Notes under the pieces: generated by a model
Told to the model about the DNA's origin: nothing
Database searches by the model: none
The model's input: only the letters and a program-made list of their open reading frames with translations
Translations under genes and position numbers: made by a program
In this document: positions 2,715 through 61,591 of the stretch, piece after piece
How positions within the stretch are numbered: the stretch's first letter is position 1
Layout: each line of letters starts with the position of its first letter
NCBI RefSeq assembly: GCF_963921235.1
Contig: NC_086097.1
Coordinates: forward strand, 175,462,001 to 175,526,000
Direction of reading: 5' to 3'
Length of the DNA: 64,000 nt
Source: Mobula hypostoma
Taxonomy: Eukaryota

Positions 2715-4761
2715 AGGGGATCTCCCATCCACTGCTACCAACCTTATAGTTCCCACACCTCGCACGTCCCGTTTCTACCTCCTACCCAAGATCCACAAAC
2801 CTGCCTGTCCTGGCAGACCTATTGTCTCAGCTTGCTCCTGCCCCACCAAACTCGTTTCTGCATACCTCGACACGGTTTTATCCCCCATTGTTCAATCCCT
2901 TCCTACCTATGTTCGTGACACTTCTCACGCTCTTAAACTTTTCGATGATGTTAAGTTCTCTGGCCCCCACCGCTTTATTTTCACCATGGATGTCCAGTCC
3001 CTATATACTTCCATCCCCCATCAGGAAGATCTCAAAGCTCTCCGCTTCTTTTTGGATTCCAGACCCAATCAGTTCCCCTCTACCACCACTCTGCTCCGTC
3101 TAGTGGAATTAGTCCTTACTCTTAATAATTTCTCCTTTGGCTCCTCCCACTTCCTCCAAACTAAAGGTATAGCTATGGGCACCCGTATGGGTCCTAGCTA
3201 TGACTGCCTTTTTGTTGGCTTTGTGGAACAATCTATGCTCCGTGCCTATTCTGGTATCTGTCCCCCACTTTTCCTTCGTTACATCGATGACTGCATTGGC
3301 GCTGCTTCCTGCACGCATGCTGAGCTCGTTGACTTTATTAACTTTGCCTCAAACTTTCACCCTGCCTTTAAGTTTACCCGGTCCATTTCTGACACCGCCC
3401 TCCCCTTTCTAGATCTTTCTGTCTCTGTCTCTGGAGACAGGTTATCCACTGATGTCTACTATAAGTTTACTGACTCTCACAGCTATCTGGACTATTCCTC
3501 TTCTCACCCTGTCTCTTGCAAAAATGCCATCCCCTTCTCGCAATTCCTCCGTCTCTGCCACATCTGCTCTCAGGATGAGACTTTTCATTCCAGGACAAGG
3601 GAGATGTCCTCCTTTTTTAAAGGAAGGGGCTTCCCTTCCTCCACCATCAACTCTGCTCTCAAACGCATCTCCCCCATTTCACGCACATCTGCTCTCACCC
3701 CATCCTCCCGCCACCCCAATAGGAATAGGATTCCCCTGGTCCTCATCTACCACCCCACCAGCCTCCGGGTCCAACATAATTCTCCGTAACTTCTGCCACC
3801 TCCAACGGGATCCCACCACTAAGCACATCTTTCCCTCCCCCCCCTGCTTTTCACAGGGATTGCTCCCTACACGACTCCCTTGTCCATTCGTCTCCCCCAT
3901 CCCTCCACACTGATCTCCCTCCTGGCACTTATCCTTGTAAGCGGAACAAGTGCTACACCTTCCCTTACACTTCCTCCCTTACCACCATTCAGGGCCCTAG
4001 ACAGTCCTTCCAGGTGAGGCAACACTTCACCTGTGGGTCGGCTGGGGTCATATACTGCATCCGGTGCTCCCGATGTGGCCTTTTATATATTGGTGAGACC
4101 CGACGCAGACTGGGAGACCGCTTTGCTGAACACCTACGCTCTGTCCGCCAGACAAAGCAGGATCTCCCAGTGGCCACACATTTTAATTCCACATCCCATT
4201 CCCATTCTGACATGTCTATCCACGGCCTCCTCTACTGTAAAGATGAAACCACACTCAGGTTGGAGGAACAACACCTTATATTCCGTCTGGGTAGCCTCCA
4301 ACCTGATGACATGAACATCGACTTTTCCAACTTCCGCTAATGCCCCACCTCCCCCTCATACCCCATCCATTATTCATTTATATACACATTCTTTCTCTCA
4401 TTCTCCTTTTTCTCCCTCTGTCCCTCTGACTATACCCCTTGCCCATCCTCTGGTTTCCCCCCCTTGTCTTTCTCCCCGGACCTCCTGTCCCATGAGCCTC
4501 TCATATCCCCTTTGCCAATCATCTGTCCAGCTCTTGGCTCCATCCCTCCCCCTCCTGTCTTCTCCTATCATTTTGGATCTCCCTGTCCCCCTCCCACTCT
4601 CAAATCTCTTACTAACTCTTCCTTCAGTTAGTCCTGATGAAGGGTCTCGGCCTGAAACGTCGACTGTACCTCTTCCTAGAGATGCTGCCTGGCCTGCTGC
4701 GTTCACCAGCAACTTTGATGTGTGTTGCTTGAATTTCCAGCATCTGCAGAATTCCTGTTGT
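2715..4761 (+). mobile_element. 5'-truncated Penelope-like element: reverse transcriptase plus GIY-YIG endonuclease, frameshifted
   Basis: ORF 2986-3789 has RT motifs (MDVQSLYTSIPH, GIAMGTRMGPSY, RYIDD, FLDL). ORF 4014-4340 has a GIY-YIG motif (VIYCIRCSRCGLLYIGETRRRLGDRFAEH). Near-identical flanks TGTTCTGCA(C/T)TC at 2703-2714 and 4759-4770; the element splits an older LINE 3' tail (2575-2714 / 4762-4885). Confidence 0.95.
4629..4666 (+). ncRNA. Minimal type I hammerhead ribozyme motif in PLE 3' region
   Basis: TAGTC-CTGATGA(4634-4640)-A-GGGT-CTCG-GCCT-GAAA(4654-4657)-CG-TC-GACTG; GUC cleavage triplet and palindromic ACGT stem III. Confidence 0.75.
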
Positions 4762-5040
4762 TCTGCATTCTATTATTGTTTTTCCGATGTACAGTGTGAT
4801 GAATTGGTCTGTATGAACAGTATGCAATACATGATTTTCACTGTACCTCGGTACATCTGACAATAATAAACTAATTCACCAATTTACAGGCAAGGAGTAG
4901 AATTGGATGAATAATGATGAGAAGCTTCTAATTTTATTATTTTGAACATTGAAATATTAGGTTACCATTTGACTTGAGAGGAGGAAAGAAGTTTTACTTT
5001 GGATTTCCATAATTACTGTATCCTTTCTGTTCATTTCCAG

Positions 5041-5395
5041 GTGGACAAGAGCCTTGTAACAGCATCGACAGTCTCTGAATACCTTTGGATAATATATGGA
5101 AACTCAAAAAGGAAGTGTATGTCAAAGATATATACACTTCCAGGAATTGAAATCAAATGCTGGCAGTGAGGCCACACTTGAAGAAGCAACAATGTGTGCT
5201 CTCGGCACCGAGCTGCTGTAAGGTCAAGATCCCACTCAGCGACTTAACATACATTTCTACCAGGTTATTAGTAATGCATTCAGTAGAGAAAATTCATCCA
5301 GTTTCGACTTGCTTCAAAAAGCTTTTGAAGTCTTTGAGAGTCTTTGCATCAATCTTCTGATACACCCATGGAGAAAAGAATTTAGAAGGATTAAA
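5041..5395 (+). pseudogene. SPATA2-family (PUB-like domain) gene, first coding exon, with in-frame stop
   Basis: Acceptor TTTCCAG ends at 5040. ATG at 5096 gives METQKGSVCQRYIHFQELK...ELL*GQDPTQRLNIHFYQVISNAF...AFEVFESLCINLLIHPWRKEFRRIK, then phase-0 donor GTGAG at 5396. It resembles SPATA2 (MDTK..[46 protein letters not shown]). TAA at 5219-5221. Confidence 0.85.
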
Positions 5396-5589
5396 GTGAG
5401 CTTTGCCTTTCAGAGTGGGATATTTGTCATTAAGGCAATCAAGGGACATTGGGTTGGTGCAGGAAAGTTGGTTTATTATTGTCATATGTGCCGAGGTACA
5501 GTAAAAAAAACTTGTTTTACATGCTATTCTTACGGAGCATTTCATCAGATCACTAGATCGAGGTAGTACAAGGAATAACAATAACAGAA

Positions 5590-6408: not shown

Positions 6409-7150
6409 ACCTTCACACCTGCCTTTGTGCACTATGTTTAGACAGCGATGTGCAGACTAGATGCTCTAAAATTGTTGGCAACCATCGGCTTTTGCCAGGA
6501 ACGGGAAGCAGAGGCATACTGCTACCAGGGCTTTCAGGAATCGCAACATTTGAGGAAGCTTGCATTTGAGTTCTTCCTTGCCCAGCTGGAATGCAGACGT
6601 TTAGCAGACATGTTGGGCAATGAACAAAAGCAAGGTCCTTCTGAAGATGGAATGGGCTGCTTGTGTCTCTTGCGAGATGGAGAAAATGAGCTTCTCATTT
6701 TAAAACAAAATTGCAGAGTTAATCTGGGAAAACTGAATGCAAGAGAGGGACACATTTTAGAGAAGCATTGGCAACACATATCCCTTTTAACATACTCACT
6801 AAACAGAGTAAATGAAGAAGGAAGGACTACAATATCTTCGCTCCCTAATGAACTGGATTCGACTTGCAATGCTGTCTCATGCGACAGTCTGATTTAAATT
6901 GGAAAAGGAGTACAGAGTTAGGAGCAGAATCAGCAGATGATTGGAATGATTGGCTACTGAAAGGAAGAGAGGTAATCTCCCAGTGTATCAGCTTGACAAT
7001 CAACTTCCAGCCCTGTAACTGCCAAACTTGTTGATCACCTCTTGCTTTGTTTAGTTTGTCTATAACGTGGCTTAGCCATTTGCACAGTGTGTTACTTGCA
7101 GAATGCCAGCACTCTCCCTTATGATTGCGAGCATGAGTTTTGCTCCTTCA
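6409..7150 (+). pseudogene. SPATA2-family gene, last coding exon (rest of PUB-like domain and degenerate C-terminal Cys-rich region)
   Basis: Acceptor CTCTTTTGCAG ends at 6408. Translates TFTPAFVHYV*TAMCRLDALKLLATIGF...LRKLAFEFFLAQLECRRL (cf. SPATA2 TYTGPFVYYVKS..ILSCMGY..VSFELFLAKVECEQM). TAG at 6439-6441. Cys cluster CNCQTC (7014-7031) and VCL*RGLAICTVCY...DCEHEF (7054-7140) lie in different frames. Confidence 0.8.
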
Positions 7151-9078: not shown

Positions 9079-11025
9079 TCCTACAGTGTGGTGACCAGAC
9101 TTACCTCTCTCTCAACTTGCTGTATTTGATTATGCTGCTTTGGAAAAGCAAACAACATAAATACCGCATCCATCCCAGACATCGTTTCTTCTACCTTCCT
9201 CCCCCTCAGAGGGCAGAAGATATAACAGCCTGAAAGCACAAACCACAAGGCCCAAGAACAGCTTCTGTCCTCCTGTTATAAGATTATTAAACTGAGTTAT
9301 TTTATGATGAAATAGACTTGACCTCACAGTCTACCTTGCACGTTATTGTCTGTCTGCACTGCTCTTTCTCTGTAACTGAAAACACTTTTTTTCTGCATTC
9401 TCTTATTGCTTTTGCTTTTTTCCACCCCAATACACTGATGTGATGAAACGATCTGGATGGATGGCATGCAAAACAAAGTTTTTTCACTGAACTTTGGTGC
9501 GTGTGACATTAATAAACCAATTTACCAATTTATCAATTCCACATTACCTCCATGGGATAAGATTTTATCCATCCTATCTATGCTTCACATAATGTTATAA
9601 AATTCATCAGATCACCCTTCACAGCCACCATTCCAGAGAAAACAATCCAGGTTTGTCCAAATAACCTTGTAGACAATGCTCTCTAATCTCGGCAGCATCC
9701 TGTTGATCCTTGTCTCACCCTCTCTGAAGACTCCATATCCTTCTGTAAATGGGCACCCAGAACTACAGATAATTCTCCTAGTGTGACTGAATTAATATTT
9801 TATCCAGTTTCAACATGACTTCACAAATTTTATACAGTTTTCTGACCAATGAAGGCAGCCATGTTTCTGTAATGGCAATGAACTCATCCCGAATTCCGCA
9901 CTGTTTCTGCCATTGATTACCCGCCTTGTTGCAGATGCAGCATGCATTTAGTTATGGTAACTTCAGGCTCTTTAGGTTTAATCTTTAAACACTTCCCCAT
10001 ACTCCAGTTCTATTTGCCACATGCCTTTATTTTCACTACCTAATATATTGATAATTACAGTTCTAACTTCCACCCCCAGCCTTATTTCTCTATTTTGTGA
10101 TTCTTCTCTCTGCCTTGCCAATACTTTGATGGCTCTATAGGACATAAAAATGGTATTGTTGCTAGGGAGGAGGGTTGCATGGAGCCCATACTATCAGTTG
10201 GTGAGATGGGTAGAGCATTGGCAAATGGATTATTATCCTGATAAGAATAAATAACTCCTGCAAGAAACTGTAGAGAGTTGTAAACACAGCTCAGGACATC
10301 ACAGAAAGCAGTTTCCCCTCAATGGACTCTGTCTGTACTTCTCGCTGGCTTGGTAAAGTAGCCAACATAATCAAAGAACCACTCACACTGGATATGCTGT
10401 CTTCTCCTCCCTCCCATCAGGCAGACGATACAAATGCCTGAAAGCATGGACCACTAGACTTAAGAACAGCTCCTACTCCACTGTGCCAAAACTCTTGAAC
10501 TGACCTCACATGGAAGTGACCTGAAGTCCTACACCACCAGGTTCAAGAGCAGTTATTTCCCTTGAACCATTCGGTTCCTAAACCAGCCCGCACAACCCTA
10601 ATCATTACCTCAGTATAGCAACACTATGACTACTTTGATTACCTTACACTGCAATAGAATTTGTTTGATTTATTCTAATCATGTTCTATCTGGCATAATT
10701 TTATATAATTTATGTTTGACTTGGGTTTTTCTTGTGAATGTTGTGTATGTGCCTGCTGCAGGTATGTTCATCACTGCATCTGATAGGCTAGGGATGTTTA
10801 AGAGACTCTTAGGTTCATGGATGCAATAAAAATCGAGCGTTATGGGTTGTGTGGGAGGGAAGGGTTAGATTGATCAAGGAGTAGATTTATATCTGTTAAC
10901 ACAACATAATGGGCCAAAGAGCCTGCACTGTGCTCCACCAATCCACATTCTGACAATAAACTGGCAAACAAAAGAGATTCTGCAGAATCTGGGAAATGGC
11001 ATTCTGGCTTTATCCCCTTCCTTCC

Positions 11026-11063
11026 CAGCCCTGATGAAGGGTCTTAGCCCGAAACGTCGACTA
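11026..11063 (+). ncRNA. Minimal hammerhead motif in a short non-autonomous PLE-tail copy
   Basis: CAGCC-CTGATGA-A-GGGT-CTTA-GCCC-GAAA-CG-TC-GACTA; core intact, stem I has mismatches. Confidence 0.6.
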
Positions 11064-11429
11064 CATAAATGCTGCTTAACTTGCTGAATTCCTCCAACAA
11101 TTTGTGTCTGTACATTTGTGGAAATTCACAAGAGTCTTCGGTAACAGGCCAAATTCTCTCAAACTCCTAATGAAATGTAGATACTGACATGCCTTCCTTG
11201 TAATTTCATCAGTATGTTGGGCCCAGGGTATGTCAACACCCAGGAGTTTGAAAGAACTACATGTATTTGACTATCTGTAGCTGTCACACTACATTCTGAA
11301 CACAGGAGATTCTACAGGTGCAGCACACACAAAAATGCTGGAGGAACTCAGCAAGTTGGGCATCATCTATGGAGGAGAATACAGCATTGACTTTTCAGAC
11401 TGAGAATGTTCATCAGGATTGGAAAGGAT

Positions 11430-12699: not shown

Positions 12700-13500
12700 G
12701 AATGCCTTGTGGGCTGAATGGCCTATCACATAACGTCGGAGGTGGGGGGAATGCGCACGCGCACGGCCGATGGGCGGGGCTTGGTTGTCAATCGAGGGGT
12801 TGCGGACCCAACGTTGACACCGCCACGAGCAGGCGCGCAGTTTGGGGAGGGACGTTGGTGGGGTTGCAATGACGCTCGACGAAATCGTGACGTCTCCTTT
12901 TCTCCAAATGGCGCAAGGTGCTGCGCCTGCGCATTGGCGCTGCGACCGTTAAGCGTGAGGGAGAAGGGGCGGGGCCTCGACTGCCGGTCATGTGTTACAG
13001 CGGGGTCTGACGGGAAGGACAAGGGAAAGGGGGCTCAACATGGCGCTGCTCGGTTGGGGCCGGTCTTGAGGGAAGCGCAGGGGGGGCGGTGTCGTCGTCA
13101 GGGGCACATCGCCACGACTAGGCAGCGGTGATGGCTCAGTGCGTGCAGAGCGTCCAGGAGTTCATCCAGGACACCTTTGTGCCCATGGTGGCTGTGCTGT
13201 GCAGCGAGGCGGCCGAGAGGTCTACGCGGAAAAACAACCTGACGTTCGCCGAGCTGGTCAGGCCTTTCTGCCGCCTGACGTCCGAAGGTGGGTGTTGGGA
13301 GGTGAGGGAGATGCTGGCTGTAGTGTCACCCCACCCCCTCGCTGTCCCTTGGGCCTCCACCCAATCGCCTATGCCTCGGATTGGCCCTGTTGTTTCCCCC
13401 TCCTCGATCCTTCGGGATTGAGCGGGGGTAACTGTTGCCCCAACACTTACCTTTCCTGTGGGGCTAGAATTGAGTCGTCGCCCTGAATCCCCCTTCACGG
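12700..13500 (+). promoter_or_regulatory. CpG-island promoter and 5' region of TRAPPC8
   Basis: Only strongly CpG-rich unique segment in the window. NRF1-like TGCGCACGCGCA (12752-12763) and TGCGCCTGCGCA (12922-12933); GC boxes (12772-12780, 12966-12975); CRE-like TGACGTCT (12888-12895); YY1-like AAATGGCG (12906-12913). Confidence 0.8.
13131..13287 (+). CDS. TRAPPC8: Trafficking protein particle complex subunit 8, coding exon 1
   Basis: MAQCVQSVQEFIQDTFVPMVAVLCSEAAERSTRKNNLTFAELVRPFCRLTSE matches the TRAPPC8 N-terminus; 157 nt, donor GTGGGT at 13288 (phase 1). Confidence 0.96.
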
Positions 13501-19257: not shown

Positions 19258-20172
19258 TCCTGTCAGATTGCCAGCAGATGGTAAGTGGGCTCCCTCACTT
19301 CTGCCCCCTGACCCTTAACAAAGGTGCTCCTCAGGGCTGTGTCCTAAGCCCCCTCCTTTTAGTCTGTATACCCATGACTCTGTTGCCACCCACAGCTCCA
19401 ATCTGCTAATTAAATTTGCTGAAGATACTATATTGATTGGCCTAATCTCAAACAATAACGAGGCAGCCTACAGAGAAGTCATCACCCTGACACAGTGGTG
19501 TCAAGAAAACAACCTCTCCTTCAATGTTGCAAAAACAAAGGAACTGGTTGTGGACTACAGGAGGAATGGAGACAGGCGAACCCCTATTGACATCAATGGA
19601 TCTGGGGTTGAGAGGAGGAACAGTTTTAAGTTCCTCAGCATCCACATCACCGAAGATCTCATATGGTCTGTACATACTGGCTATGTGGTAAAAAAGGCAC
19701 AGCAGTGCCTCTTTCACCTCAGACGGATGAAGGAAGATTGGTGTAGGCCCCTAAATCCTAAGAACTTTCTACAGGGGCACAATTGAGAGCATCCTGACTG
19801 GCTGTATCACTGCCTGGTATGGGAACTGTACTTCCCTCTATTCAGGACATTTACAAAGACAAGTGTGTAAAAAGGCCCTGAAGGATCATTGGGGACTCGT
19901 CATCCCAACCACAAACTATTCCAGCTGCTACAATCTGAGAAACAGTACCGCAACATAAAAGCCAGGACCAACAGGCTCCAGGACAGCTTCCACCAAACCA
20001 TCAGACTGATTTAATTCTTTCTGATACAATTGTATTTCTACGTTATATTGACTGTCCTGTTGTACATACTATTTATTATAAATTACTATAGATTGCACAT
20101 TTCGATGGAGATGTAAAAATCTTAACATTACTCCTCATGTATGTGAAGGATGTAAGTAATAAAGTCAATTCA
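19258..20172 (+). mobile_element. Rex1/Babar LINE (RT to 3' tail)
   Basis: GAPQGCVLSPLL, KFAEDT.LIGLISNNNEAAYRE, NVAKTKELVVDYRR; AATAAA and TTCAG-like tail. Confidence 0.85.
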
Positions 20173-25784: not shown

Positions 25785-26685
25785 TCAGAATCAGGTTTAT
25801 TATCACTGGCATGTGACGTGAAATTTGTTAACTTGGCAGCAGCAGTTCAATGTAATACATAATCTGGCAGAGAGAGGAAAAAAATAAATAAAACAATAAA
25901 TAAGTAAATTAGTTACATATATTGAATAGATTTTTAAAAACATGCAAAAACAGAAATACTGTATATTTTTAAAAAAGGGAGGTAGTATTCATAGGTTTAA
26001 TGTCCATTTAGGAATGAGAGATGGCAGAGGGGAAGAAGCTGTTCCTGAATTGCTGAGTGTGTGCTTTCAGGCTTCTGTACCTCCTACCTGATGGTAACAG
26101 TAAGAAAAGGGCATGCCCTGGGTGCTGGAGGTCCTTAATAATAGACTCTGCCTTTCGGAGACACCGCTCTCTAAAGATGTCCTGGGTACTTTGTAGGTTA
26201 GTGCCCAAGATGGAGCTGACTAGATTTTCAACCTTCTGCAGCTTCTTTTGGTCCTGTGCAGTAGCCCCTCCATACCAGGCAGTGATGCAGCTTGTCAGAA
26301 TGCTCTCCACAGTACAACTAAAGAAGTTTTTGTGTATTTGCTGACATGCCAAATTTCTTCAAACTGCTAATGAAGTATAGCTGCTGTCTTGCCTTCTTTA
26401 TTACTACATGAATACCTTGGGACCAGGTTAGATCCTCGGAGATCTTGACACCCAGGAACTTGAACAGCTCTCTCTCTCCACTTCTGATCCCTCTGAGGAT
26501 TAGTATGTGTTCCTTCATCTTGCCCTTCCTGAAGTCCACAATTAGTTCTTTCATCTTACTGATGTTGAGTGCCAGTTTGTTGCTGCAGCACCATTCCACT
26601 AGTTGGCATATCTCACTCCTGTATGCCCTCTCGTCACCACCTGAGATTCTACCAACAATGGTTGTATCGTCAGCAAATTTCACTT
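25785..26685 (-). mobile_element. Rex1/Babar LINE 3' part
   Basis: KFADDTTIVGRISGGDERAYRSE...ESILTSCITAWYG...LPSGRRYRSLKAHTQQFRNSFFPSAI; TGATTC-type tail. Confidence 0.88.
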
Positions 26686-27760
26686 CATTCACTTTGTTCC
26701 TTCTGGCTATCAGATTTTCATCAGTGATTTGTCATTTATTGTCTCAAAAATGAAAATGATTGACTTGACTTTTGTGATCTATTCTTCACTACTTGACTGA
26801 GTTTAAGATTGCTGAATCCTTTAAATCTCTCACTTTGCACAGGACAATACGTTGAAAATTTTTCTTTTTTTTTGTCTTAGCAAAGTGACCTTGGGGAATT
26901 ACAACCTGGTTCGATGCAAGTTTTCTTACTCAGTATCTTGCCATATTGGACCAAGACTATATTTGTTTTAAAAAGATTAAATTAAGAGTCATAAGTTTGT
27001 GGTAGTTTATTTTCCTTTGTCAGTTACATAACATTTTTATTTGGTTTATTTTTGGATTAAGCTTGGGTATTCTTTCTCTGTTTAGAAAGTGGATCACTGG
27101 AAAATATTGAACTGCAAAGCAATTTTTAGCATGACTTTAAACATATGTGAGCTCTTAATGCTTATACAATCACTGATACTTATTGAGTTGAATTATGGAG
27201 TGATTTTAAAAAATGTGCTATTAGAAAGTCTTGTGTACTTGCACAACTTGTAGGGTTTGAAATGTTTTTCATAAATGAGTTACTTGTTTGTACATGCAAA
27301 TGCATATTCCGTTCCATGGTTTCATTGTTAGATGGAAGAACATTCAATTTTTACTAACATATGTCACATCCTTGGCACAGTCTTTTATTTCTCTAATGGT
27401 GCAAGTCTGATTCTTCACCCATGGTCGGTTAAGTATGTGTTCTACCCAAAAGACCTGAGCATGTCAGGGTTGGGAATTTTAAAAAATATCCTGAGACTTG
27501 TATTGGCTATGGTTGAAATGGGTTTGATTTTAGACAGTTTATTTAGAACAGGAATAATTGTATGACCTGCTGTGAGATAATACACGTCTGGAATATTACT
27601 CACTCAAGTAAATGGCATCTTTTGAATATTGCGGTATTTCCTGGTCTAATTACAGAATCGGCTCAGTGAAACAACTTTCACTTTAAAACTGATGGCAGTA
27701 GAAAGAGCAAAAAGTATTCATCTTTTTGTGAACAATTAAGTAAAATGAATAAAAGTAGTA

Positions 27761-32600: not shown

Positions 32601-33695
32601 CTCATGGGAAGGGTGAATTTAAAAAAAGGAATATCTCTAAGTGAAACCAAATGTGTCGATGTGACAGTATGTGTTGCTCTTAGCAAGGCTCTAGGATGTG
32701 CCCAGTGGGCGGAATAATATTAATGGAGAGAAAAACTGAATGAAAATTACAGTAATATGACTGGCAAAAGTGGCCAGTGTAAAGCCGATTGAAAGAGCAA
32801 GTTACCTCCAGATAGAGAATTCGGTATTAAACTTGGAAGGCTGTATTGTGCCCATGTTGTTCCTCATGTTTGTATTTGGCCTTGTTCTATTAGTGTGGGA
32901 GGTTCTTGATTGCAGAGTTGTAGACATTGTTCAACACATCGTGGAAACCATCCACCCCTTTATGGACTCTGTCTTTGTTTCTCACTGCGTCAGTAAACCA
33001 GTCAATATAATCAATTTGGCATTCTCTTTTCTCACTCCTTCCATAAGACAAAAGATATCAAAGCTTGAGAGCACGTACCACCAGGCTCAAGACAGCTTCT
33101 ATCATGCTGTTAAAACTATTAACTGTTTCCTAATATAAGATAGACTTTTGACCTCACAAGCTGTCATCATGGCCTTGCACCTTATTGTTTGCCTGCAATG
33201 CACTTTCTGTAACACCTCAATGCACATGTGATGAAATCTGTATGGATGGCAAATCAAAGTTTTTCACTGTCCTTCAGTACATATGGCAATAATAAACTAA
33301 TTTACCAATTTAGGTTGGAGTGGAATGAATTAAAATAGTATGAAACAAAGGAGCTCAAGGCTGCACTGTGGATTAAGTGATGGTGCTATGCTGTGATGTA
33401 GAGGAGAGCAAAAATTGTGCTTATCAGCTGCATCAGCTTAGATTAACCGAAGTGCAAGTGTGTCACCAGGTTCCTGGATAATGAGAAGGGAGAATGAAAG
33501 GATAGGTGTTGAATCACCTGCATTTTCAAGGTATTGATGGTAGAATATTTTACTTGAAGCCAAACTTCGCAGGCACTTCATAGCCACATTGTTATGCACA
33601 GTTTCATGTTAAAACTCATGAGCAAATTACCAAGATTTCGATCAGTTTTAAGTGTCAGAGGATGAAGGGATGGCAAAATTTAGAATGGGAATACG

Positions 33696-33935: not shown

Positions 33936-35014
33936 ACAAACCTTGGCAGCTGAAAGTATGGTTGTTAGTGGTGGATCAATTAAATTATGCCAATGAGGAC
34001 AGGATTAAAAACATATTTGCAGAAATCCTTTTTCTCTGTAAGGTATTTTGGATTTGAAATTGAAGCTGGAGAGAATTACTATCTTTTACTTTTGGGAGTT
34101 TAAATCAAATAGAAATGGATTGTTCAACAAACTCTGGAGGCACAGGCTTACTGGGAATCTGTTCAAGAGCGGCTCAGCTGGATTCTGCATTGGTGCAGAG
34201 AGTGGGAATTACACATTTAACAGAGCTGAAGGAGATGTGAGTTTCAAATTTATATGTTGGGTGCAGGAAATTCAGAAGTAATTACAATAGAGAATCCATG
34301 GTATTCAGTTATATTCTCAGCTCTTTGGCTTCAGCAGTGCCATTTAGCTTCCAGTAGATGCTGGGTGAAGTCTAAGCTATTTATTCTTTCCTGAATCAAC
34401 GAATAGTGAAGGAGATAATAGACTTTGAGCACATTAATAGAATGGTAGTTACAGAATGCATCAAATTTGCGTCAGCTAATTAGTGCATTTTGTAACAATG
34501 ATGGGGCATTATAGATTTTAAATGTGGTTTAGGAGCAAATACTTGGAAGAATGTGTGTACAATTTTAAAAAAATTATAAGACAGGCATAGGATTTTGTCT
34601 CGGATTATGAGAGGACTGTAGTGTAAAAACAAGCAAGCTTTTGCTAAAGATGAAGTTCGTTATTTAATGAGACCCATCTGAACAATGATAGTCAGTTTTA
34701 GCCATTACACATTAGGAAGGATGTTCTCTACTGATAAAGCCTTACTTGGATGTTTTCAATATTTGTATTTTGAAGAAGCCAAAGCCACAAGCCAAATCTG
34801 TTTGGCAATTCACATTGTCCAGTTTATTTCCTCCTACAGATGCTTTTCATCCTATGAATTCATTCAAGACTTCATGAATTCAGATCAAGGATCTCTGTTC
34901 AAAACTGTTTATTTCCCTCCATAGATGCTGCCTGACCTACTGAGTTCCTATAGCATTGTTTTTGTTTTGATGCTCAAGATTTCCAGCATCTGGAGTCCTT
35001 TGTGCCCCCTAGAG

Positions 35015-43112: not shown

Positions 43113-45993
43113 CTGTAACTGATTCCTTCTCATGCCAATCAACCCACACTTGCACGGTCTCCTGCCACTTATGCTGGCTAGAACTAAATTGGGGTGGCCT
43201 GTTAGCCGACCAGCACACCTTCGCATTGTGTGGAAAAAATCAGCATGTGGGGATGAAAACGTACGATCACGGTGTGCAAACTGCACAGATGAGCAGGATC
43301 CAATGTGGTTTTGCAGGAGCTGTGTGGCAGTAACTTCACCCACAAAGCCTCTGTGCTGTCTCCATGTTGGGAGTGGCTAAAAATGTAAGCAAAATGTCCT
43401 TTTGCAATCTCTAATTTACTTTGACATTTGAAGGCACCATTATTGGATTTGGTGAAGTGTCTTTGGCTTCATTCAAGGTTGATAGGTTGATCTTTTACAT
43501 AATTTAGCTAGTAGAGACTTCAAAGGTGTTTATCTTCTATGGTTTACCCTTAATGTGATGGCTGGTGAAATGTAAGTTTTGTCCCTGATTAATATATTGT
43601 ATAGTGGGAACACTTCATGGCATGAAGTATGCTAATAGACGCGTGGAAAAAGTTATACAAATACCATGTTAACTGGTCTTTATAAAATGTCTTTATAAAA
43701 TGTTATTCAAATACATTTGAATACATTTCAATGTATATTTATTGAACCATGATCCTTACCACCAGAGGAATAAGTTCAATAGAGTCTGCCTGCGCAAATG
43801 TGCACTGAAGCATTCTTAATTAATAAAAGATTTCTTCTTAGCTTTTTCTTTCACATCCATAAATTTAAAAATAGATTTTAAATTTTGCGAACAAGATTCT
43901 GCAGATGCTGGAAATCCAAATCAACACACTCAAATGCTGGAAGAACTTAACAGGTCAGGAGTCATCTTTAGAATTGAATAAATAGTTGACGTTTCAGGTG
44001 GAGACTGTTCATCAGGAGGGTGCTGTAATGATCTTTTAACGCCAGTCACTTGTTGAACACACCAGAATAGGCGTGAATTTGCTGATTAGTTGACGCAGCA
44101 TTTTTGTGTTTAGTAGCATTGGCAATGGTATGAGCTGGATGCCTCCTGAGGATTGTTGGATTATATTCTAAGAGTGGGACACTGTATTTTGTTAATGTAT
44201 TTAGAAGTTGAAATTTTGTTATTTTAGAATCATATTTTTGTTAGAAGCTCTAAGTTGCTAACAAAAGCCTGATTTTGGTCTATTTAAAAACATTAAATAA
44301 GTTCTTAACTCACTGATGGGTCTTTAATACAATGTTCTGTTTTCCATCAGATCGCTCAGTAAAAGCTAGTGTTCCATGGTACAATAATTGGAAAGACACT
44401 TTGACGCAGCTGAGTTCGTCCAAGTTCCATGCAGGTATTTTTTTAAGTTGGTGTGGGCTTTGCAGTTACTAATTTCTCCCCTCTCCATTTCCTTTCATTA
44501 AAACTACTTCATAGTTTAAGGCTTCCTGAAACACTCCCATCTTTGCTATGATTGATATTTTCATTGGTCTTGACAATGCAGGCAAATTGCTGAATAGCTG
44601 TGATGGTCAATGGCTAAAGAGAATCAAAAGGGTCAGTGTCCTCTTGTTTTCTTTGCTGTATTTATATGGTATTGGTTGCAAAGATTAGAATAGTTAAGAG
44701 TGGATGGAAAATATGACCAAATCCATGCAAATGTAACTTGCAGATTCATTAGTTGTACCTGGTTCAGTAGCTTGTAGCAGTTGAAGGCTTAACTCTCTAT
44801 TTCCCCTATTCGGTTCTAGCAGGGTACTGAACTGACTTCTCTCAAACTGTTTCTACCCTTCTGTCTTCAATCCTGCCCTTATGCCCTTTGTGTTCCTCAT
44901 CCATTGTAAATGCACCTTCCATTGTACCCTTTATGTTTAGCCCCCTCTTCTCCTGGATCCACTTTCTCTCTCCAGCTTGGACCTCCTTTCACTTTAACCC
45001 TCCACTCTCCATCACCTCGCTTGTCTCTTCCTACCCTTCAACACTTCCCCATGGCTTGTGTCCTGTATCTTTTTGAAGGCTGTTCTTGAATCTTATATTT
45101 TAACGAGGCTTTTTGGGTTCCAGTTTTTGTATTGGATTTTGTCTTGATGGCAAACAGCTTAACAATGCTTTGGAAAACGTTGAGTTTCTGTTGTAGTTTA
45201 TGTCAAAAGCATTTGTTATTTCTAATGTGTATGATGTAACACAACAATTTGCTCACACCAAACTATCACAACTGGGGATCTGTTAATATCTTAATCTGTT
45301 CTTATGATGTTGACTAAAGGATAAATATTGCCAGGATACCAGACATTATTTCTTTGTCCTTCAAAAAGAACCATGCAGTTGTCTGTATCCATTAACGAGG
45401 ACCAGTGAGATCTTGGCTTAATATCTCACCTAGGAGACAGCTCCTTCAATAATGCAAAACTCAAATCCAACACTGGTGCATCATATTAGATTGTGCTTTG
45501 TGTCAAAATGCTCATAATCCTAATTATTTCATTGGAATTGCAGCTTTCACAGTTGCTCTTACATTGAAAGTATTTCCTGCTTCATGTTTGCAGTGGACCA
45601 AATATCTTTTGACTGCACTGATTATTTTTCAATGTTTAGTGTGTGCGTTTAGATTTAGGGTGGGCTATAATGTCTGTGACTGAGTTTCATTTAATTTTTG
45701 ACACAGCACAGAATCTTAAACTCTTATGTCTTTTGAATGTATATTAAGTTCAATCTTAGTCTTTGATTTACATATGTACTTTCATAATAAGTTTACTTTG
45801 AACTCTTGTTAATTTCTATTCACGGCTCTGGGATGTCTCACATTTGCAGAAAGATTCTTATTTTCATTATCTCTGAAATTGTTGGAGACATTTCAATGTA
45901 TTTTACTCTGTATATAAAGTAGAGCGAGGGAATTGGTGTAAATCCTTGCAGCAGAACACAAGTTCCTCAGTGCTAACCTTAAAATGGACAGAG

Positions 45994-48716: not shown

Positions 48717-49413
48717 TACATTAAGTGCAATTGCACTGTGAATCCTGTGTGCAAAGAATGACTATTTGATCATTTTACATGTTCAGAAGTTTTTTTTTCA
48801 CTCTTTTGAACCTACCCAGAAAATGGATGCTTGAATTGAAAGCTTTTGAATTGGGTTTCCTTCCTTGTATTTTCTTGCCCTGACCCCGCAAGAGTCTAAC
48901 TAAAAATATTCTCCATCCTGCATTACAAGCTAATATTAAGATCTGGAACTGTTAATTTCAGGTTTAATTGTGCATACAATACCTTGGATTGGAATTACCA
49001 AATTGAGTATTTCTGAATTTCTTCAATACATGTTCACACTGTCTTTTCATTATAATGATAAGATTGTTTTTCACCTTCAACTGGCTATTTGCTCTTTGAT
49101 TTTGACAGCTAGGCTCCAAAATAAACTGTGCTGTCTGTGTTTGCAATCAGTTCAGTAATTGTTATCTTATTTTTTCTCTCTGGCAATGTTCTCATTGTGT
49201 GAGTACAGCTAATGTAAGAGATAGAAAATTGACATTGGATTTTGCTAATTTATGGCCTGTGAATAGTTGATTGGCTTTCCAATAAAGCTTGTTTAAAGAT
49301 TGTTACTAAAGTGTTGGAGAACTTGAGATTTCAAAGTCAAGAAAGAGGTGTGACTGTGCCACTAAACGATATAGTTCAGGAAATAGCATTGATGAACTTA
49401 AGTGACACAGAAG

Positions 49414-51082
49414 CGACGGAGGATGAGAGGTGACCTGATAGAGGTGTACAAGATGATGAGAGGCATTGATCGTGTGGATAGTCAGAAGCTTTTCCCAGGG
49501 CTGAAATGGCTAACACGAGAGGGCACAGTTTTAAGGTGTTTGGAAGTAGGTACAGAGGAGATGTCAGGGGTAAGTCAGCATGGATTTGTGAAAGGAAAAT
49601 CATGTCTGACGAATCTCATAGAAGTTTTTGAGGATGTAACTAGTAGAGTGGATAGGGGAGAACCAGTGGATGTGGTATATTTGGATTTTCAAAAGGCTTT
49701 TGACAAGTTCCCACACAGGAGATTAGTGTGCAAACTTAAAGCACACGGTATTGGGGGTAAGGTATTGATGTGGACAGAGAATTGGTTGGCAGACAGGAAG
49801 CAAAGAGTGGGAATAAATGGGACCTTTTCAGAATGGCAGGCAGTGACTAGTGGGACCGCAAGGCTCAGTGCTGGGACCCCAGTTGTTTACAATATATATT
49901 AATGACTTAGATGAGGGAATTAAATGCAGCATCTGCAAGTTTGCGGATGACATGAAGCTGGGCGGCAGTGTTAGCTGTGAGGAGGATGCAGGGTGACTTG
50001 GATAGGTTAGGTGAGTGGGCAAATTCATGGCAAATGCAATTTAATGTGGATAAATGTGAGGTTATCCACTTTGGTGGCAAAAACAGGATTAAACAGATTA
50101 TTATCTGAATGGTGGCCGATTAGGAAAAGGGGAGGTGCAACGAGACCTGGGTGTCATTATACACCAGTCATTGAAAGTGGGCATGCATGTACAGCAGGCA
50201 GTGAAAAAGGCGAATGGTATGCTGGCATTTATAGCAAGAGGATTCGAGTACAGGAGCAGGGAGGTACTACTGCAGTTGTACAAGGCCTTGGTGAGACCAC
50301 ACCTGGAGTATTGTGTGCAGTTTTGGTCCCCTAATCTGAGGAAAGGCATCCTTGCCATAGAGGGAGTACAAAGAAGGTTCACCAGATTGATTCCTGGGAT
50401 GGCAGGACTTTCATATGATGAAAGACTGGATGAACTAGGCTTATACTCGTTGGAATTTAGAAGATTGAGGGGGGGATCTTATTGAAACGTATAAAATCCT
50501 AAAGGGATTGGATAGGCTAGATGCAGGAAGATTGTTCCCGATGTTGGGGAAGTATAGAACAAGAGGTCACAGTTTGAGGATAAAGGGGAAGCCTTTTAGG
50601 ACCGAGATGAGGAAAAACTTCTTCACACAGAGAGTGGTGAACCTGTGGAATTCTCTGCCACAGGAAACAGTTGAGGCCAGTTCATTGGCTCTATTTTAGA
50701 GGGAGTTAGATATGGCCCTTGTGGCTAAAGGGATCAGGGGGTATGGAGGGAAGGCTGGTACAGGGTTCTGAGTTGAATGATCAGCCATGATCATACTGAA
50801 TGGCGGTGCAGGCTCGAAGGGCCGAATGGCCTACTCCTGCACCTATTTTCTATATTTCTATGTTTTACGCAGAGGGTGATGAGAGTGGGGAATGGGCTGC
50901 TGGCGATGGTGGTGGAGGCGGAAACAATAGGGTCTTTTAAGAGACTTCTGGATAAGTGTATGGAGCTTAGAAAAATAGAGGGCTATGGGTAACCCTAGGT
51001 AATTTCTGAGGTAAGTACATGTTCGGCGCAGCTTTGTGGGCCGAAGGGCCTGTATTGTGTTGTAGGTTTTCTATGTTTCTAG
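49414..51082 (+). mobile_element. Younger CR1 (~49575-50862) nested in an older CR1 3' fragment
   Basis: SQHGFVKGKSCLTNL..VYLDFQKAFDK, LVRPHLEYCVQFWSP; two separate TTTCTATG-type tails (~50850, ~51070). The older copy's ...GGGGTAAGT / TTTTACGCAGAG is split by the insert. Confidence 0.88.
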
Positions 51083-52571: not shown

Positions 52572-52609
52572 CAGTCGATGTTTCAGGCTGAGACCCTTCG
52601 TCAGGACTA
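52572..52609 (-). ncRNA. Minimal hammerhead motif (left PLE arm)
   Basis: Reverse complement TAGTC-CTGACGA-A-GGGTCTCAGCCT-GAAA-CA-TC-GACTG. Confidence 0.6.
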
Positions 52610-54421: not shown

Positions 54422-54459
54422 TAGTCCTGACGAAGGGTCTCGGCCTGAAATGTCGACTG
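54422..54459 (+). ncRNA. Minimal hammerhead motif (right PLE arm)
   Basis: TAGTC-CTGACGA-A-GGGT-CTCG-GCCT-GAAA-TG-TC-GACTG. Confidence 0.62.
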
Positions 54460-56899: not shown

Positions 56900-57751
56900 A
56901 TACTGCTTTGACATTGACTGGAATGTCTTCCATGATGAGGATGTCTGAGTTCACGAATGGGGTCAGAAGTTTCATCCAGAAGAGTATCTAGGATGTTGTC
57001 CCCCAGAGATTGGTCAGGGTCTATTCAAACCAGAAACCCCAAAGCAACAATTCCGTGCAAGAAGCAGTTATTGTGCGACACAGAGATTATGTTGCCGGTA
57101 ATTAGCAGGAGCTCAAGAAATGCAGCAACGATCTACGCAAAGTCATCAAGGTGGTGAAACAATAATACAGGGACAAGATCCATACACAACTCTCTACCAA
57201 CAACACATGCAGTTTATGGCAAGGTCTGCACACCATCGCCGACTTCAAAGCTAAACACAGTGGAGTTTCCAACATCACTACCTCTCTCCCAGACGAGCTA
57301 AATCTTTTTTGCGCTCGAATCAATGTCGCCAATACTGAGCCCCAAAGGAGACCTGCAGATGATGCGACCGGCAGCTTGGTCATTTATGAGGCCGAAGTAT
57401 GAATGTTTTTCCACTGATGGACAGTCACAAGGCTGTGGGACCAGACATCATCCCAGGCTGGGTACTCGGGATGTGCGTGGCGCAACTGGCAGGTGTATTT
57501 ACAGACACTTTTAATCTCTCCTTCTCCCAGTGTAGAGTGCTCTCCTGCTTCAAAACATCCACCATTGTTCCGGTACCTAAAAAGACTAAGGTAACATGTC
57601 TGAACGACTGGTGTCCTGTCACACTCACCTCAATAATAAGCAAATGCTTTGAGAGATTGGTTAAGGACCTCATCTGCAGCATGCTGCCACCCACACTGGA
57701 CCCCCTACAATTTGCCTACTGACAAAATCAATTAACAGATGATGCAATAGC
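56900..57751 (+). mobile_element. Rex1/Babar LINE internal fragment
   Basis: KAVGPDIIPGWVL..CVAQLAGVFTDTFNLS..KKTKVTCLNDWCPVTLTSIISKCFERLV..LDPLQFAY. Confidence 0.85.
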
Positions 57752-59090
57752 CAGAACTGTCCCAGAGCCTGTTGGTCCTGGCTTTTGTGCTGCGGTACCG
57801 TTTCCTGGATGATAGCTGGAACAGTTTGTGGTTGGGGTGACTCTGGTCCCAAATGATCCTTCGGGCCCTTTTTTTTTTACACACCTGTCTTTGTAAATGT
57901 TCTGAATAGTGGGAAGTTCACATCTACAGTTGCACAGGGCTGTCCGCACCACTCTCTGCAGAGTCCTGCGATTGAGGGAATTACAGTTCCCATACCAGGC
58001 AGTGATGCAGCCAGTCAGGATGCTCTCAATTGTGCCCCTGTAGAAAGTTCTTAGAATTTGGGGGCCCATACCAAACTTCAACTGTCTGGGGTGAAAGAGG
58101 CGCTGTGGTGCCTTTTTCACCACACGGCCAGTACGTACAGACCACGTGAGATCCTCGGTGATGTTTATGCCGAGGAACTTAAAGCTGTTCACCCTCTCAA
58201 CCCCAGATTCATTGATGTCAACGGGTTAGCCTGTCTCCATTCCTCCTGTAGTCCACAACCAGCTGCTTTGTTTTTGCTTTGTTTTTGTGACATTGAGGAA
58301 GAGGTTGTTTTCTTGACACCACTATGTCAGGGTGATGACATCATCTCTGTGAGCTGCCTCATTATTATTTGAGATTAGGCCAATCAATGTAGTGTTGTCA
58401 GCAAATTTAATTAGCAGATTGGAGCTGTGGGTGACGACACAGATATGGGTATACAGAGGGTAAAGGAGGGGGCTTAGGGCACAGTCTTGAGCTACACCTG
58501 TGAGGGTCAGAGGGGCAGAGGTGAGAGAGCCCACTCTTGCCACCTGCTGGCGATCTGACAGGTATCCGGGATCCAGCTACACAAGGCAGGGTGAAGGCCG
58601 AGGTCTCTGAGGTTCTTGTCGAGGCTGGAGGGAATTATGGTGTTGAATGCTGAACTGTAGTCCAAGAACAGCATTCTTACATAAGCATCCTTCTCCAGAT
58701 GTGTAAGGATGGTGTGTATAGTTGTGGCTACTGCGTCATCTGTCGATCAGTTGTGTCGGTGGGTGAATTGTAGGGGGTCCAGTGTGGGTGGCAGCATGCT
58801 GCAGATGTAGTCCTTAACCAACCTCTCAAAGCATTTGCTTATTATTGAGGTGAGTGTGACAGGACACCAGTCATTCAGACATGTTACCTTGGTCTTTTTG
58901 GGTACAGGAACAATGGTGATGTTTTGAAGCAGGAAGGCACTCTACACTGGGAGAGGCAGAGATTAAAAATGTCTGTAAACACACCTGCCAGTTGTGCTGC
59001 ACACACTCCAAGTACCCGCCCTGGGATGCCATCTAGTCCCGCAGCTTTGCGACTGTCCACTCGTTGTAAACACCTGCGTACTTTGGACAA
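57752..59090 (-). mobile_element. Rex1/Babar LINE, opposite orientation, same family as 56900-57751 and 19258-20172
   Basis: KAAGLDGIPGRVL, KFADNTTLIGLISNNNEAA, SFKFLGINITEDLTWS, FYRGTIESILTGCITAWYGN. Confidence 0.88.
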
Positions 59091-59791: not shown

Positions 59792-61591
59792 CAGTGACTA
59801 TAAAAAGTATTCCCTCCCCTCCCCCTGGAAATTTTCATGTTTTATTGTTTTACAATGTTGAATAGCAATAGACAATAATAGACGATAGACAATAGGTGCA
59901 GGAGTAGGCCATTCGCTCATCGAGCCAGCACCGCCATTCACTGTGATCATGGCTGATCATCCACAATCAGTATCCAGTTCCTGCCTTATCCCCATAACCT
60001 TTGATTCCGCTATTTTTAAGAGCTCTATCCATCTCTTTCTTGAAAGCATCCAGAGACTTGGCCTCCACAGCCTTCTGGGGCAGAGCATTCCATACATCCA
60101 CCACTCTCTGGGTGAAAAAGTTTTTCCTCAGCTCTGTTCTAAATGGCCTACCCCTTATTCTTAAACTGTGGCCTCTGGTTCTGGACTCACCCATCAGCAG
60201 GAACATGCTTCCTGCCTCCAGCATGTCCAATCCCTTAATAATCTTATACGTTTCAAAAAGCCTTCTAAATTCCAGAGTATACAAGCCCAGTCGCTCCAAT
60301 GTTTCAACATATGACAGTCCTGCCATCCTGGGAATTAACCTTGTGAACCTACGCTGCACTCCCTCAATAGCAAGAATGTCCTTCCTCAAATTTGGAGACC
60401 AAAACTGCACACAGTACTCCAGGTGTGGTCTCACCAGGGCCTTGTACAGCTGCAAAAGGACCTCTTTGCTCTTATGCTCAATTCCCCTTGTTATGAAGGC
60501 CAGCATGCCATTAGCTTTCTTCACTGCCTGCTGTACTTGCATGCTTGCTTTCAGTGACTGATGTACAAGAACACCTAGATCTTGTTGTACTTCCCCTTTT
60601 CCTAACTTGACTCCATTTAGATAATAATCTGCCTTCCCGTTCTTACCACCAAAGTGGATAACCTCACATTTATCCACATTAAACTGCATCTGTCATGCAT
60701 CTGCCCACTCACCCAGCCTGTCCAAGTCACCCTGCATTCTCATAACATCCTCCTCACATTTCACACTGCCACCTATCTTTGTGTCATTGTCAAATTTGCT
60801 AATGTTACTATTAATTCCCTCATATAAATCATTAATATATATTGTAAAAAGCTGCGGTCCCAGCACTGAACCCTGCGGTACCCCACTGGCTGCCTGCCAT
60901 TCCGAAAGGGACCCGTTAATCGCTACTGTTTGTTTTCTGTCAGCCAGCCAATTTTCAATCCATGTCAGTACTCTGCCCCCAATACCATGTGCCCTAATTT
61001 TGCCCACTAATCTCCCATGTGGGACTTTATCAAAGGCTTTCTGAAAGTCCAGTTACACTACATCCACTGGCTCTCCCTTGTCCATTTTCATAGTTACATC
61101 CTCAAAAAATTCCAGAAGATTAGTCCATGCTGACTCGGACCAATCCTGTTACTGCTATCCAGATGTGTTGTAATTTCGTCTGTTATAATTGACTCCAGCA
61201 TATTTCCCACCACCGACGTCAGGCTCACCGGTCTATAGTTCCTTGTTTTCTCTCTTCCTCCCTTCTTGAAGAGAGGAATTTATTTAATGGGGAGAAATTG
61301 CAGTGTCCAGATTTGCAAAGCTGATAGAGAGTGATCCACACGGACTCAAGCCTGTAATTGCTGCTAAAGGTGCATTTACTAAGTACTGACTTGAAGGGGG
61401 TAATTATGCAATCAGTTATTTTGTGTTTAATTGTTATAAATTTAGACCAATTTATAGAAATTTGTTTTAACTTTGACATAAGAGTCTTCTGTTCATCAGT
61501 GTCAAAAAAGCCAAATTAAATCCTCTGATTCACTGTTGTAAAACATGAAAACTCTCTTGGGGTAGTGGTGTGAATACTTTTTATAGGCATC
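59792..61591 (+). mobile_element. Deleted Tc1-like element (same family as 46384-48716) interrupted by a CR1
   Basis: Left end CAGTGACTATAAAAAGTATTC; right end GAATACTTTTTATAGGCA; transposase C-terminus (AVIAAKGAFTKY*-like) near 61350-61390. Confidence 0.75.
59862..61272 (-). mobile_element. Relatively young CR1 LINE (RT C-terminus and 3' tail)
   Basis: ORFs 60693-61007 ([14 protein letters not shown]) and 59967-60689 (MQFNVDKCEVIHFG...LVRPHLEYCVQFWSP); TCTATTG-type tail. Confidence 0.92.

Follow-up and report, generated by a model that had tools for sequence, protein, structure and literature searches.

Does a hammerhead-like motif in the genome of a ray belong to a ribozyme that processes the RNA of its mobile element, or is it carried along by the repeat in which it lies? 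The question was raised by an initial annotation of a 64,000-nt stretch of Mobula hypostoma DNA (the window; positions count from its first letter), which placed a complete minimal hammerhead at 4629–4666 (+) in the 3' tail of a fish Penelope-like element (PLE), with cleavage after C4661. By sequence and covariance model, all parts of the motif were found where they had been placed. The 5' strand of stem I (UAGUC, 4629–4633, +) pairs with its 3' strand (GACUG, 4662–4666, +) through four Watson–Crick pairs and one U.G, a length of 5 bp that lies within the 3–6 bp open helix I of type I topology. Core positions C3–A9 (CUGAUGA, 4634–4640; standard hammerhead numbering) are followed by an extra A4641 between 9 and 10.1 (core with extra base, 4634–4641, +), which is also present in 12 of 12 relatives. 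Stem II (4642–4653, +) is formed by GGGU (4642–4645) and GCCU (4650–4653) in the four pairs G.U, G-C, G-C and U.G, closed by the 4-nt loop CUCG, and is followed by G12–A15.1 (GAAA, 4654–4657) and CGUC (4658–4661; both segments together 4654–4661, +). The core of the class is thereby present as CUGANGA at 4634–4640, GAAA at 4654–4657 and a U-H cleavage site at U4660-C4661; C17 is 4661, and the cut is predicted 3' of it, as annotated. Pair 10.1-11.1 is G.U, where most PLE minimal hammerheads have G-C. A shifted stem II register with A4641 paired to U4653 was rejected as less stable (−5.6 vs −7.0 kcal/mol; probability ≤ 0.001). In place of helix III stands, in the 15.1-16.1 segment, the palindrome ACGU (4657–4660, +), which had been described as a tiny palindromic stem III; the palindrome was confirmed and the stem within one molecule was not, because ACGU has no loop, and helix III is possible only between two motifs, in a dimer. 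CpG decay has broken the palindrome in two sister copies (52572 and 54422).

The host is, as annotated, a PLE of a fish, here a ray. The motif lies in a 5'-truncated insertion of a single unit at about 2715–4762 (+), the ends of which overlap by a few bases with a 12-bp target-site duplication (left copy 2703–2714, right copy 4759–4770, both +; 11 of 12 positions identical). The flanks rejoin into an older repeat, of which an uninterrupted homologue is found at 33135–33312. Upstream of the motif, a reverse transcriptase (RT) frame (open from 2698, RT part 2716–3789, +; PF00078, E 2.9e-7) ends at a frameshift near 3780, the only one that separates it from a frame with a Zn-finger linker and a GIY-YIG endonuclease (EN; 3780–4340, +; PF01541, E 8.5e-5; stop codon 4338–4340). 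Relative to homologues of ~900 aa, which have the full RT-EN layout, the RT is without its N-terminal part including the ADKGG region; 184 proteins matched at E ≤ 0.001, the closest RT match being a Chiloscyllium protein (70%). A pyrimidine-rich 3' UTR (4341–4628, +) shared with the copies at 52.5–54.6 kb follows, so that the motif begins ~290 nt 3' of the GIY-YIG stop codon, and an optional tail of ~37 nt (4726–4762, +) ends the element, copies of which terminate near 4725 or 4762. Because of the frameshift, the missing RT N-terminus and the target duplication round one insertion, the focal element is regarded as a single dead unit, truncated at its 5' side and so lacking the upstream terminal repeat; the motif is at the 3' end, where a terminal repeat would have it, and the upstream pLTR is absent from this truncated copy.

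The linker reads CX4CX2C in the homologues and in both sister copies (in the focal copy the third Cys is Phe), and CCHH-type residues are present. A CX2-5CxxC linker together with such CCHH residues defines the Neptune and Nematis clades (Craig et al. 2021, PMC8557442), so that the element fits this pair of clades; within it, linker and host range suggest a Neptune-like element, a provisional placement made on these two features. With the Neptune clade as described there it also shares an RT with C-terminal GIY-YIG, 5' truncation, inverted partner copies and a 30–40 bp tail at one end.

For detection, a covariance model was built from 12 invertebrate motifs only, none of them from the window. 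Its top match was 4628–4667 (39.8 bits, E 2.7e-9, on a rough calibration), and six of its 25 matches in the window had E < 1e-4, the remaining 19 having E ≥ 0.043. The bare core pattern is weak alone, with 14 matches in the window where 5.85 are expected by chance. Of 39 Rfam matches in the window and three in 4560–4780 (E ≤ 10), none was to a hammerhead family. The canonical Rfam models include helix III, which the 4629–4666 motif does not match, and we infer that the absent match is to be expected because the motif is without that helix. Together with a folding z-score of −0.8 for the isolated 38-mer, the silence of Rfam and the commonness of the bare pattern would suit a chance hammerhead-like string amplified by its repeat. 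This reading is hardly credible in view of distant relatives in which motif, position and covarying stems recur, and of the independent model's E-value, and it was rejected on these grounds. A snoRNA reading was rejected as well.

The relatives were the best 80 of 492 related stretches in metagenome contigs, which appear to be mostly invertebrate host DNA; among 18 candidate stretches in viral contigs none was a relative. A strict descriptor found 14 sense and four antisense motifs in the 80 loci and none in any of 20 shuffles. Where the end of the endonuclease and the following DNA were both available (29 loci), a core with at most one substitution lay 81–133 nt after the stop codon in 15, compared with 1/29 for control windows inside the ORF. 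The other 14 are without a near-perfect core: some are visibly decayed, some have nothing, and two have a motif only upstream of the ORF, a position occupied in three relatives. Two full-length PLEs (L013:310-3726 and L016:260-3406) have a frame open through an upstream hammerhead and none after the stop; in both, the 3' end runs into repeated sequence that recurs at the start of the contig. Three further motifs (L024:2031-2070, L037:5690-5729 and L044:5360-5399) have in common a U4-to-C core change (CCGACG), possibly an amplified variant lineage.

Covariation, proposed as a check across genomic copies, was seen among such related elements. In ten families (nine external and the focal copy, near-duplicates merged) selected on the core only, stem I was paired at 0.825 vs 0.557 when permuted (1/5000) and stem II at 0.975 vs 0.851 (20/5000); kinship inflates such pairing tests, and stem I is nonetheless seen in several unrelated sequences. 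In an alignment of 12 motifs, the choice of which depended in part on pairing, 93.8% of 96 cells were paired and covariation was 0.866 vs 0.216 after shuffling (0/500 shuffles); in the same alignment, two-sided changes occurred in six of eight pairs and slid controls were 24–48% paired. Pair 10.1-11.1 is G-C in all 12 invertebrate motifs. Because all catalytic letters are kept and the stems covary across distant hosts, the comparison suggests that hammerhead chemistry is under selection in active lineages.

In the sequence features tested, the motif at 4629–4666 is a member of the PLE minimal hammerhead class, which has been known since 2014; what is added here is mainly its extension to a batoid Neptune-like family. 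Minimal type I hammerheads were reported in Xena, Poseidon and Neptune PLEs of fishes (Cervera and de la Pena 2014, PMC4209133), and the ray motif agrees with those described there in its core, the extra base between 9 and 10.1, the palindromic CG without helix III, the short helix I, the terminal-repeat position, seen here at the 3' end, and the prevalence of solitary copies from truncated elements. It differs in its ray host (the Fig. S3 alignment of that paper has no cartilaginous fish), in a short stem II of 4 bp with two wobbles and G.U at 10.1-11.1, and in its density, which extrapolates to the order of 10^5 vs the ~4,000 motifs given there for coelacanth and ~9,000 for Xenopus. A literature search yielded no paper devoted to ray PLE hammerheads; supplements of PMC4209133 and of a 2026 preprint on retrozymes (bioRxiv 10.64898/2026.07.22.740005) may list cases. 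That preprint describes non-LTR retrozymes, the type I hammerhead of which likewise comes from terminal repeats of PLEs, and reports hammerhead retrozymes in its single chondrichthyan species. A retrozyme is a non-coding tandem array, whereas the focal motif is single, has no tandem copy and sits on a truncated coding element, and identity with a retrozyme was therefore rejected.

Four related motifs had been listed in the window, and all were correct: 412–449 (+; E 2.3e-6), of another subfamily; 1261–1298 (+; E 2.9e-5); and 52572–52609 (−; E 1.1e-6) and 54422–54459 (+; E 8.5e-7), of the focal subfamily and forming the left and right arms of an inverted pair. Overlooked were 11026–11063 (+; E 2.4e-8) and decayed hammerhead copies near 11400, 25480, 44000 and 62990. 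Altogether ~16 related PLE terminal pieces in ~12 insertions were found in the 64-kb window. In focal coordinates their 3' ends fall into two classes, near 4725 and near 4762, ~37 nt apart; the classes were taken from BLAST, because a separate permissive local alignment blurred copy ends. Inverted pairs were seen at 10964/11107, 12187/12365, 30190/30323 and 52513/54555, and in four of four such pairs with both ends in the window the long end was on one arm only. The 5' ends of short window copies range, by eye, from about −80 to +35 with respect to C3, and about one short copy (near 34903) has its 5' end near the cut site, a number too small for a test. A tandem master element or tandem motif copy was absent from the 64-kb window.

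The first three of these pairs are short fold-back insertions of PLE terminal pieces alone. The fourth is a palindromic head-to-head insertion of two 5'-truncated copies 3% apart, inside a TRAPPC8 intron, with its own target duplication of ~9–12 bp, a tail on one arm and ~eight 41-bp tandem repeats at its centre; miRNA-like Rfam matches at 53.6 kb correspond to this centre of the inverted repeat and were discarded. At 1–540 an inverted PLE unit of a different subfamily combines a minus-strand RT fragment, running from 367 to the beginning of the window, with a hammerhead-bearing terminal piece on the plus strand.

According to the initial annotation, the core is kept across copies while stems and loops vary. 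The covariation is real in the outside relatives, but variation in the window is mostly decay: 54422 and 52572 have a disrupted palindrome, 1261 has A.C at 10.1-11.1 and U17, and 412 has a stem I mismatch. Excess conservation of the core over its flanks, which had been suggested as a further check, was not seen among three close window copies, in which differing columns numbered 4/38 in the motif, 36/467 in the EN, 25/288 in the UTR and 6/59 downstream; near copies thus appear to decay neutrally after insertion. Among window subfamilies, conservation immediately downstream of the motif equals that of the core.

Folding predictions separated the motif from its surroundings. The isolated 38-mer was predicted to fold with both stems (−9.2 kcal/mol). 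In context the hammerhead pairs had a probability of at most 0.02, and a pyrimidine-rich stretch at 4615–4627 (+) was predicted to pair with 4634–4645 and so to sequester the core and stem II. Stem II probability in context was 0.00 in six of six window copies vs ≥ 0.5 in 11 of 14 invertebrate motifs, and that of stem I was ≤ 0.25 in all 20. Cofolding of two 38-mers gave a palindrome-centred duplex, which does not model the active dimer. Such predictions speak against efficient self-cleavage as a routine step in processing the RNA of the family, including transcripts through dispersed copies, as do the absent helix III and the two wobbles of stem II, even though the core and the GUC triplet are intact, stem I has 5 bp, and several same-strand motifs with compatible stem I halves lie within 11 kb. 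Copies also span the uncut site: initiation of reverse transcription downstream of the motif, with synthesis across the cut site, would mean that every such copy derives from uncut or re-joined RNA. A sense copy (54422) is tolerated within a TRAPPC8 intron; over the TRAPPC8 introns, copies with a full or partial core number five antisense and one sense, too few for a strand bias to be used. Published PLE minimal hammerheads were inactive as monomers and weak as dimers and trimers (PMC4209133), and one of nine Xenopus retrozyme dimers cleaved, the other eight remaining uncleaved (bioRxiv 10.64898/2026.07.22.740005). Routine efficient cleavage is, taken together, improbable.

Abundance and variants were assessed in four sequencing runs aligned to 4440–4800 at 80% likeness, which count contigs and do not give a copy number. 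Of the matching contigs, 134,918 and 123,751 came from two DNA-type runs, which represent two organisms, while 11,407 and 6,198 came from two runs guessed to be RNA; being contigs, they are uninformative on strand, level and RNA ends and bear neither way on expression or cleavage. From the four strict motifs or six model matches per 64 kb, the number of motifs extrapolates, from this one window, to the order of 10^5 per multi-gigabase genome. Variant figures were depth-weighted, reference-biased, incompletely counted and restricted to the best-supported 40 of 80 variants. On this footing, T at 4653 (the G.U at 10.1-11.1) made up ~69% of depth in X1, 60% in X5 and 74% in X15 and X16, and C 31, 40, 26 and 26%, respectively; N7 was C in 72% of X1 depth. 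CpG sites are hypermutable, and five CpG transitions (4649, 4658, 4659, 4661 and 4662) stood at 9–11% in X1. Because T at 4653 lies far above this level of CpG decay, the G.U is probably carried by active masters and looks lineage-fixed. CpG-decay variants were at 3–8% in the runs guessed to be RNA vs 9–14% in the DNA-type runs, which would fit transcription of younger copies. Loose ends piled up before 4630–4632 and after 4756–4762, and none fell at 4662, among the 24 rows listed (1331 more exist); some of the ends at 4630 and 4667 stem from other subfamilies, which at 4630 have different upstream sequence.

The same figures may be taken to mean that the motif is a catalytically relaxed relic in the ray lineage, kept as a protein-binding, promoter or RT-landmark region and not as a cutter. 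G.U masters would then have been amplified widely, as the excess of T at 4653 over neighbouring CpG decay suggests, and a stem II predicted to be unfolded in context, a downstream region conserved like the core, and loose ends that gather at 4630–4632 and not at 4662 would follow; Naiad PLEs, moreover, proliferate without hammerheads (PMC8557442). However, G.U at this pair has precedents among PLE motifs from cichlids, coelacanth and Xenopus (PMC4209133 Fig. S3), no non-CpG core position appears among the 40 best-supported variants of 80, every core letter is the same as in the distant invertebrate relatives, and the loose ends at 4630 have in part the subfamily origin already given. A relic of this kind is unlikely. 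For the kinetic cost of G.U at 10.1-11.1, the available portions of PMC2837043 and PMC544870 give no number.

The reading we favour, with reasonable though not high confidence, is that of a conditional ribozyme, dimer- or protein-dependent, which would act in tandem masters and cleave weakly after C17, the lone truncated copy being an inert passenger. The element's protein would bind the RNA 3' of the motif, and reverse transcription would start at one of two sites ~37 nt apart, producing short and long ends. It would then pass an uncut or re-joined cleavage site and stop early, often near the motif, which could yield the very many short copies. Cleavage, where it occurs, may trim a tandem transcript to unit length or feed circularisation. 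In single motifs it would be kept off by the missing helix III and by the predicted pairing of the core with the pyrimidine-rich stretch upstream, until two motifs pair via the ACGU palindrome, probably aided by the element's protein; inserted copies would decay neutrally. Against this conditional ribozyme stand the lack of excess conservation, the G.U at 10.1-11.1, a stem II predicted to be unfolded in context, the 14/29 relatives without a near-perfect core, the absence of a tandem master from the window and the normal insertion of Anolis mutants. Of the initial interpretation, the PLE minimal type I hammerhead was upheld; self-processing of the family's RNA may at most be inferred, and site-spanning copies, unexceptional conservation and the sequestered fold weigh against it.

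An experimental parallel is PAc, a Poseidon element of Anolis carolinensis, in which the hammerhead requires the element's protein for cleavage (Frangieh et al. 2024, PMC11167929). In that study, insertion in vitro was unaffected by core mutations, RNA reads terminating at the cut were not seen, and the PLE tail was tied to two RT start sites. In both elements the hammerhead precedes two RT start sites (putative in the ray), which set the limits of an optional tail, and copies would come from uncut RNA. PAc belongs to the Penelope/Poseidon clade, whereas the ray element has a Neptune/Nematis Zn-finger linker, and protein-assisted cleavage, demonstrated for PAc, is presumed for the ray element.

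Because the role of PLE hammerheads in transposition is called unknown (PMC8557442) and cleavage was dispensable in vitro (PMC11167929), the value of the ray family is as test material: with its very high copy number, its sub-lineages of G-C and G.U type and its two classes of tail, the start and end points of copies could be compared with the cut site across a whole genome. A bolder and rather doubtful proposal is that ray genomes hold ~100,000 intact minimal hammerheads, mostly from masters in which the fixed G.U and the upstream anti-core helix constitute a protein-gated switch. Such a switch would be off in host transcripts and on only in the element's own ribonucleoprotein, and the number would be at least ten times the highest vertebrate counts of the 2014 survey.

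The surrounding sequence contains the first four coding exons of TRAPPC8 (13131–63765, +), at 13131, 22914, 44347 and 63649 (100, 97, 97 and 82% to the Mobula birostris protein), the exon at 44347–44436 matching an insert found in isoforms of rays designated X1. The TRAPPC8 start codon and a SPATA2-like frame follow the focal PLE copy at distances of 8.5 kb and ~430 nt, respectively. The SPATA2-like frame consists of two exon-like pieces of a SPATA2 PUB-like domain at 5096–5400 and 6442–6897 (+; PF21388, E 1.9e-15 and 2.7e-8), the first broken by an in-frame stop at 5219–5221 that would indicate a pseudogene, an allele or a sequence error. Other non-LTR fragments (RT and ALKBH8_N-like Pfam matches) were found at 19319–19786, 26321–26731, 49402–49902, 57728–58225 and 59967–61052.
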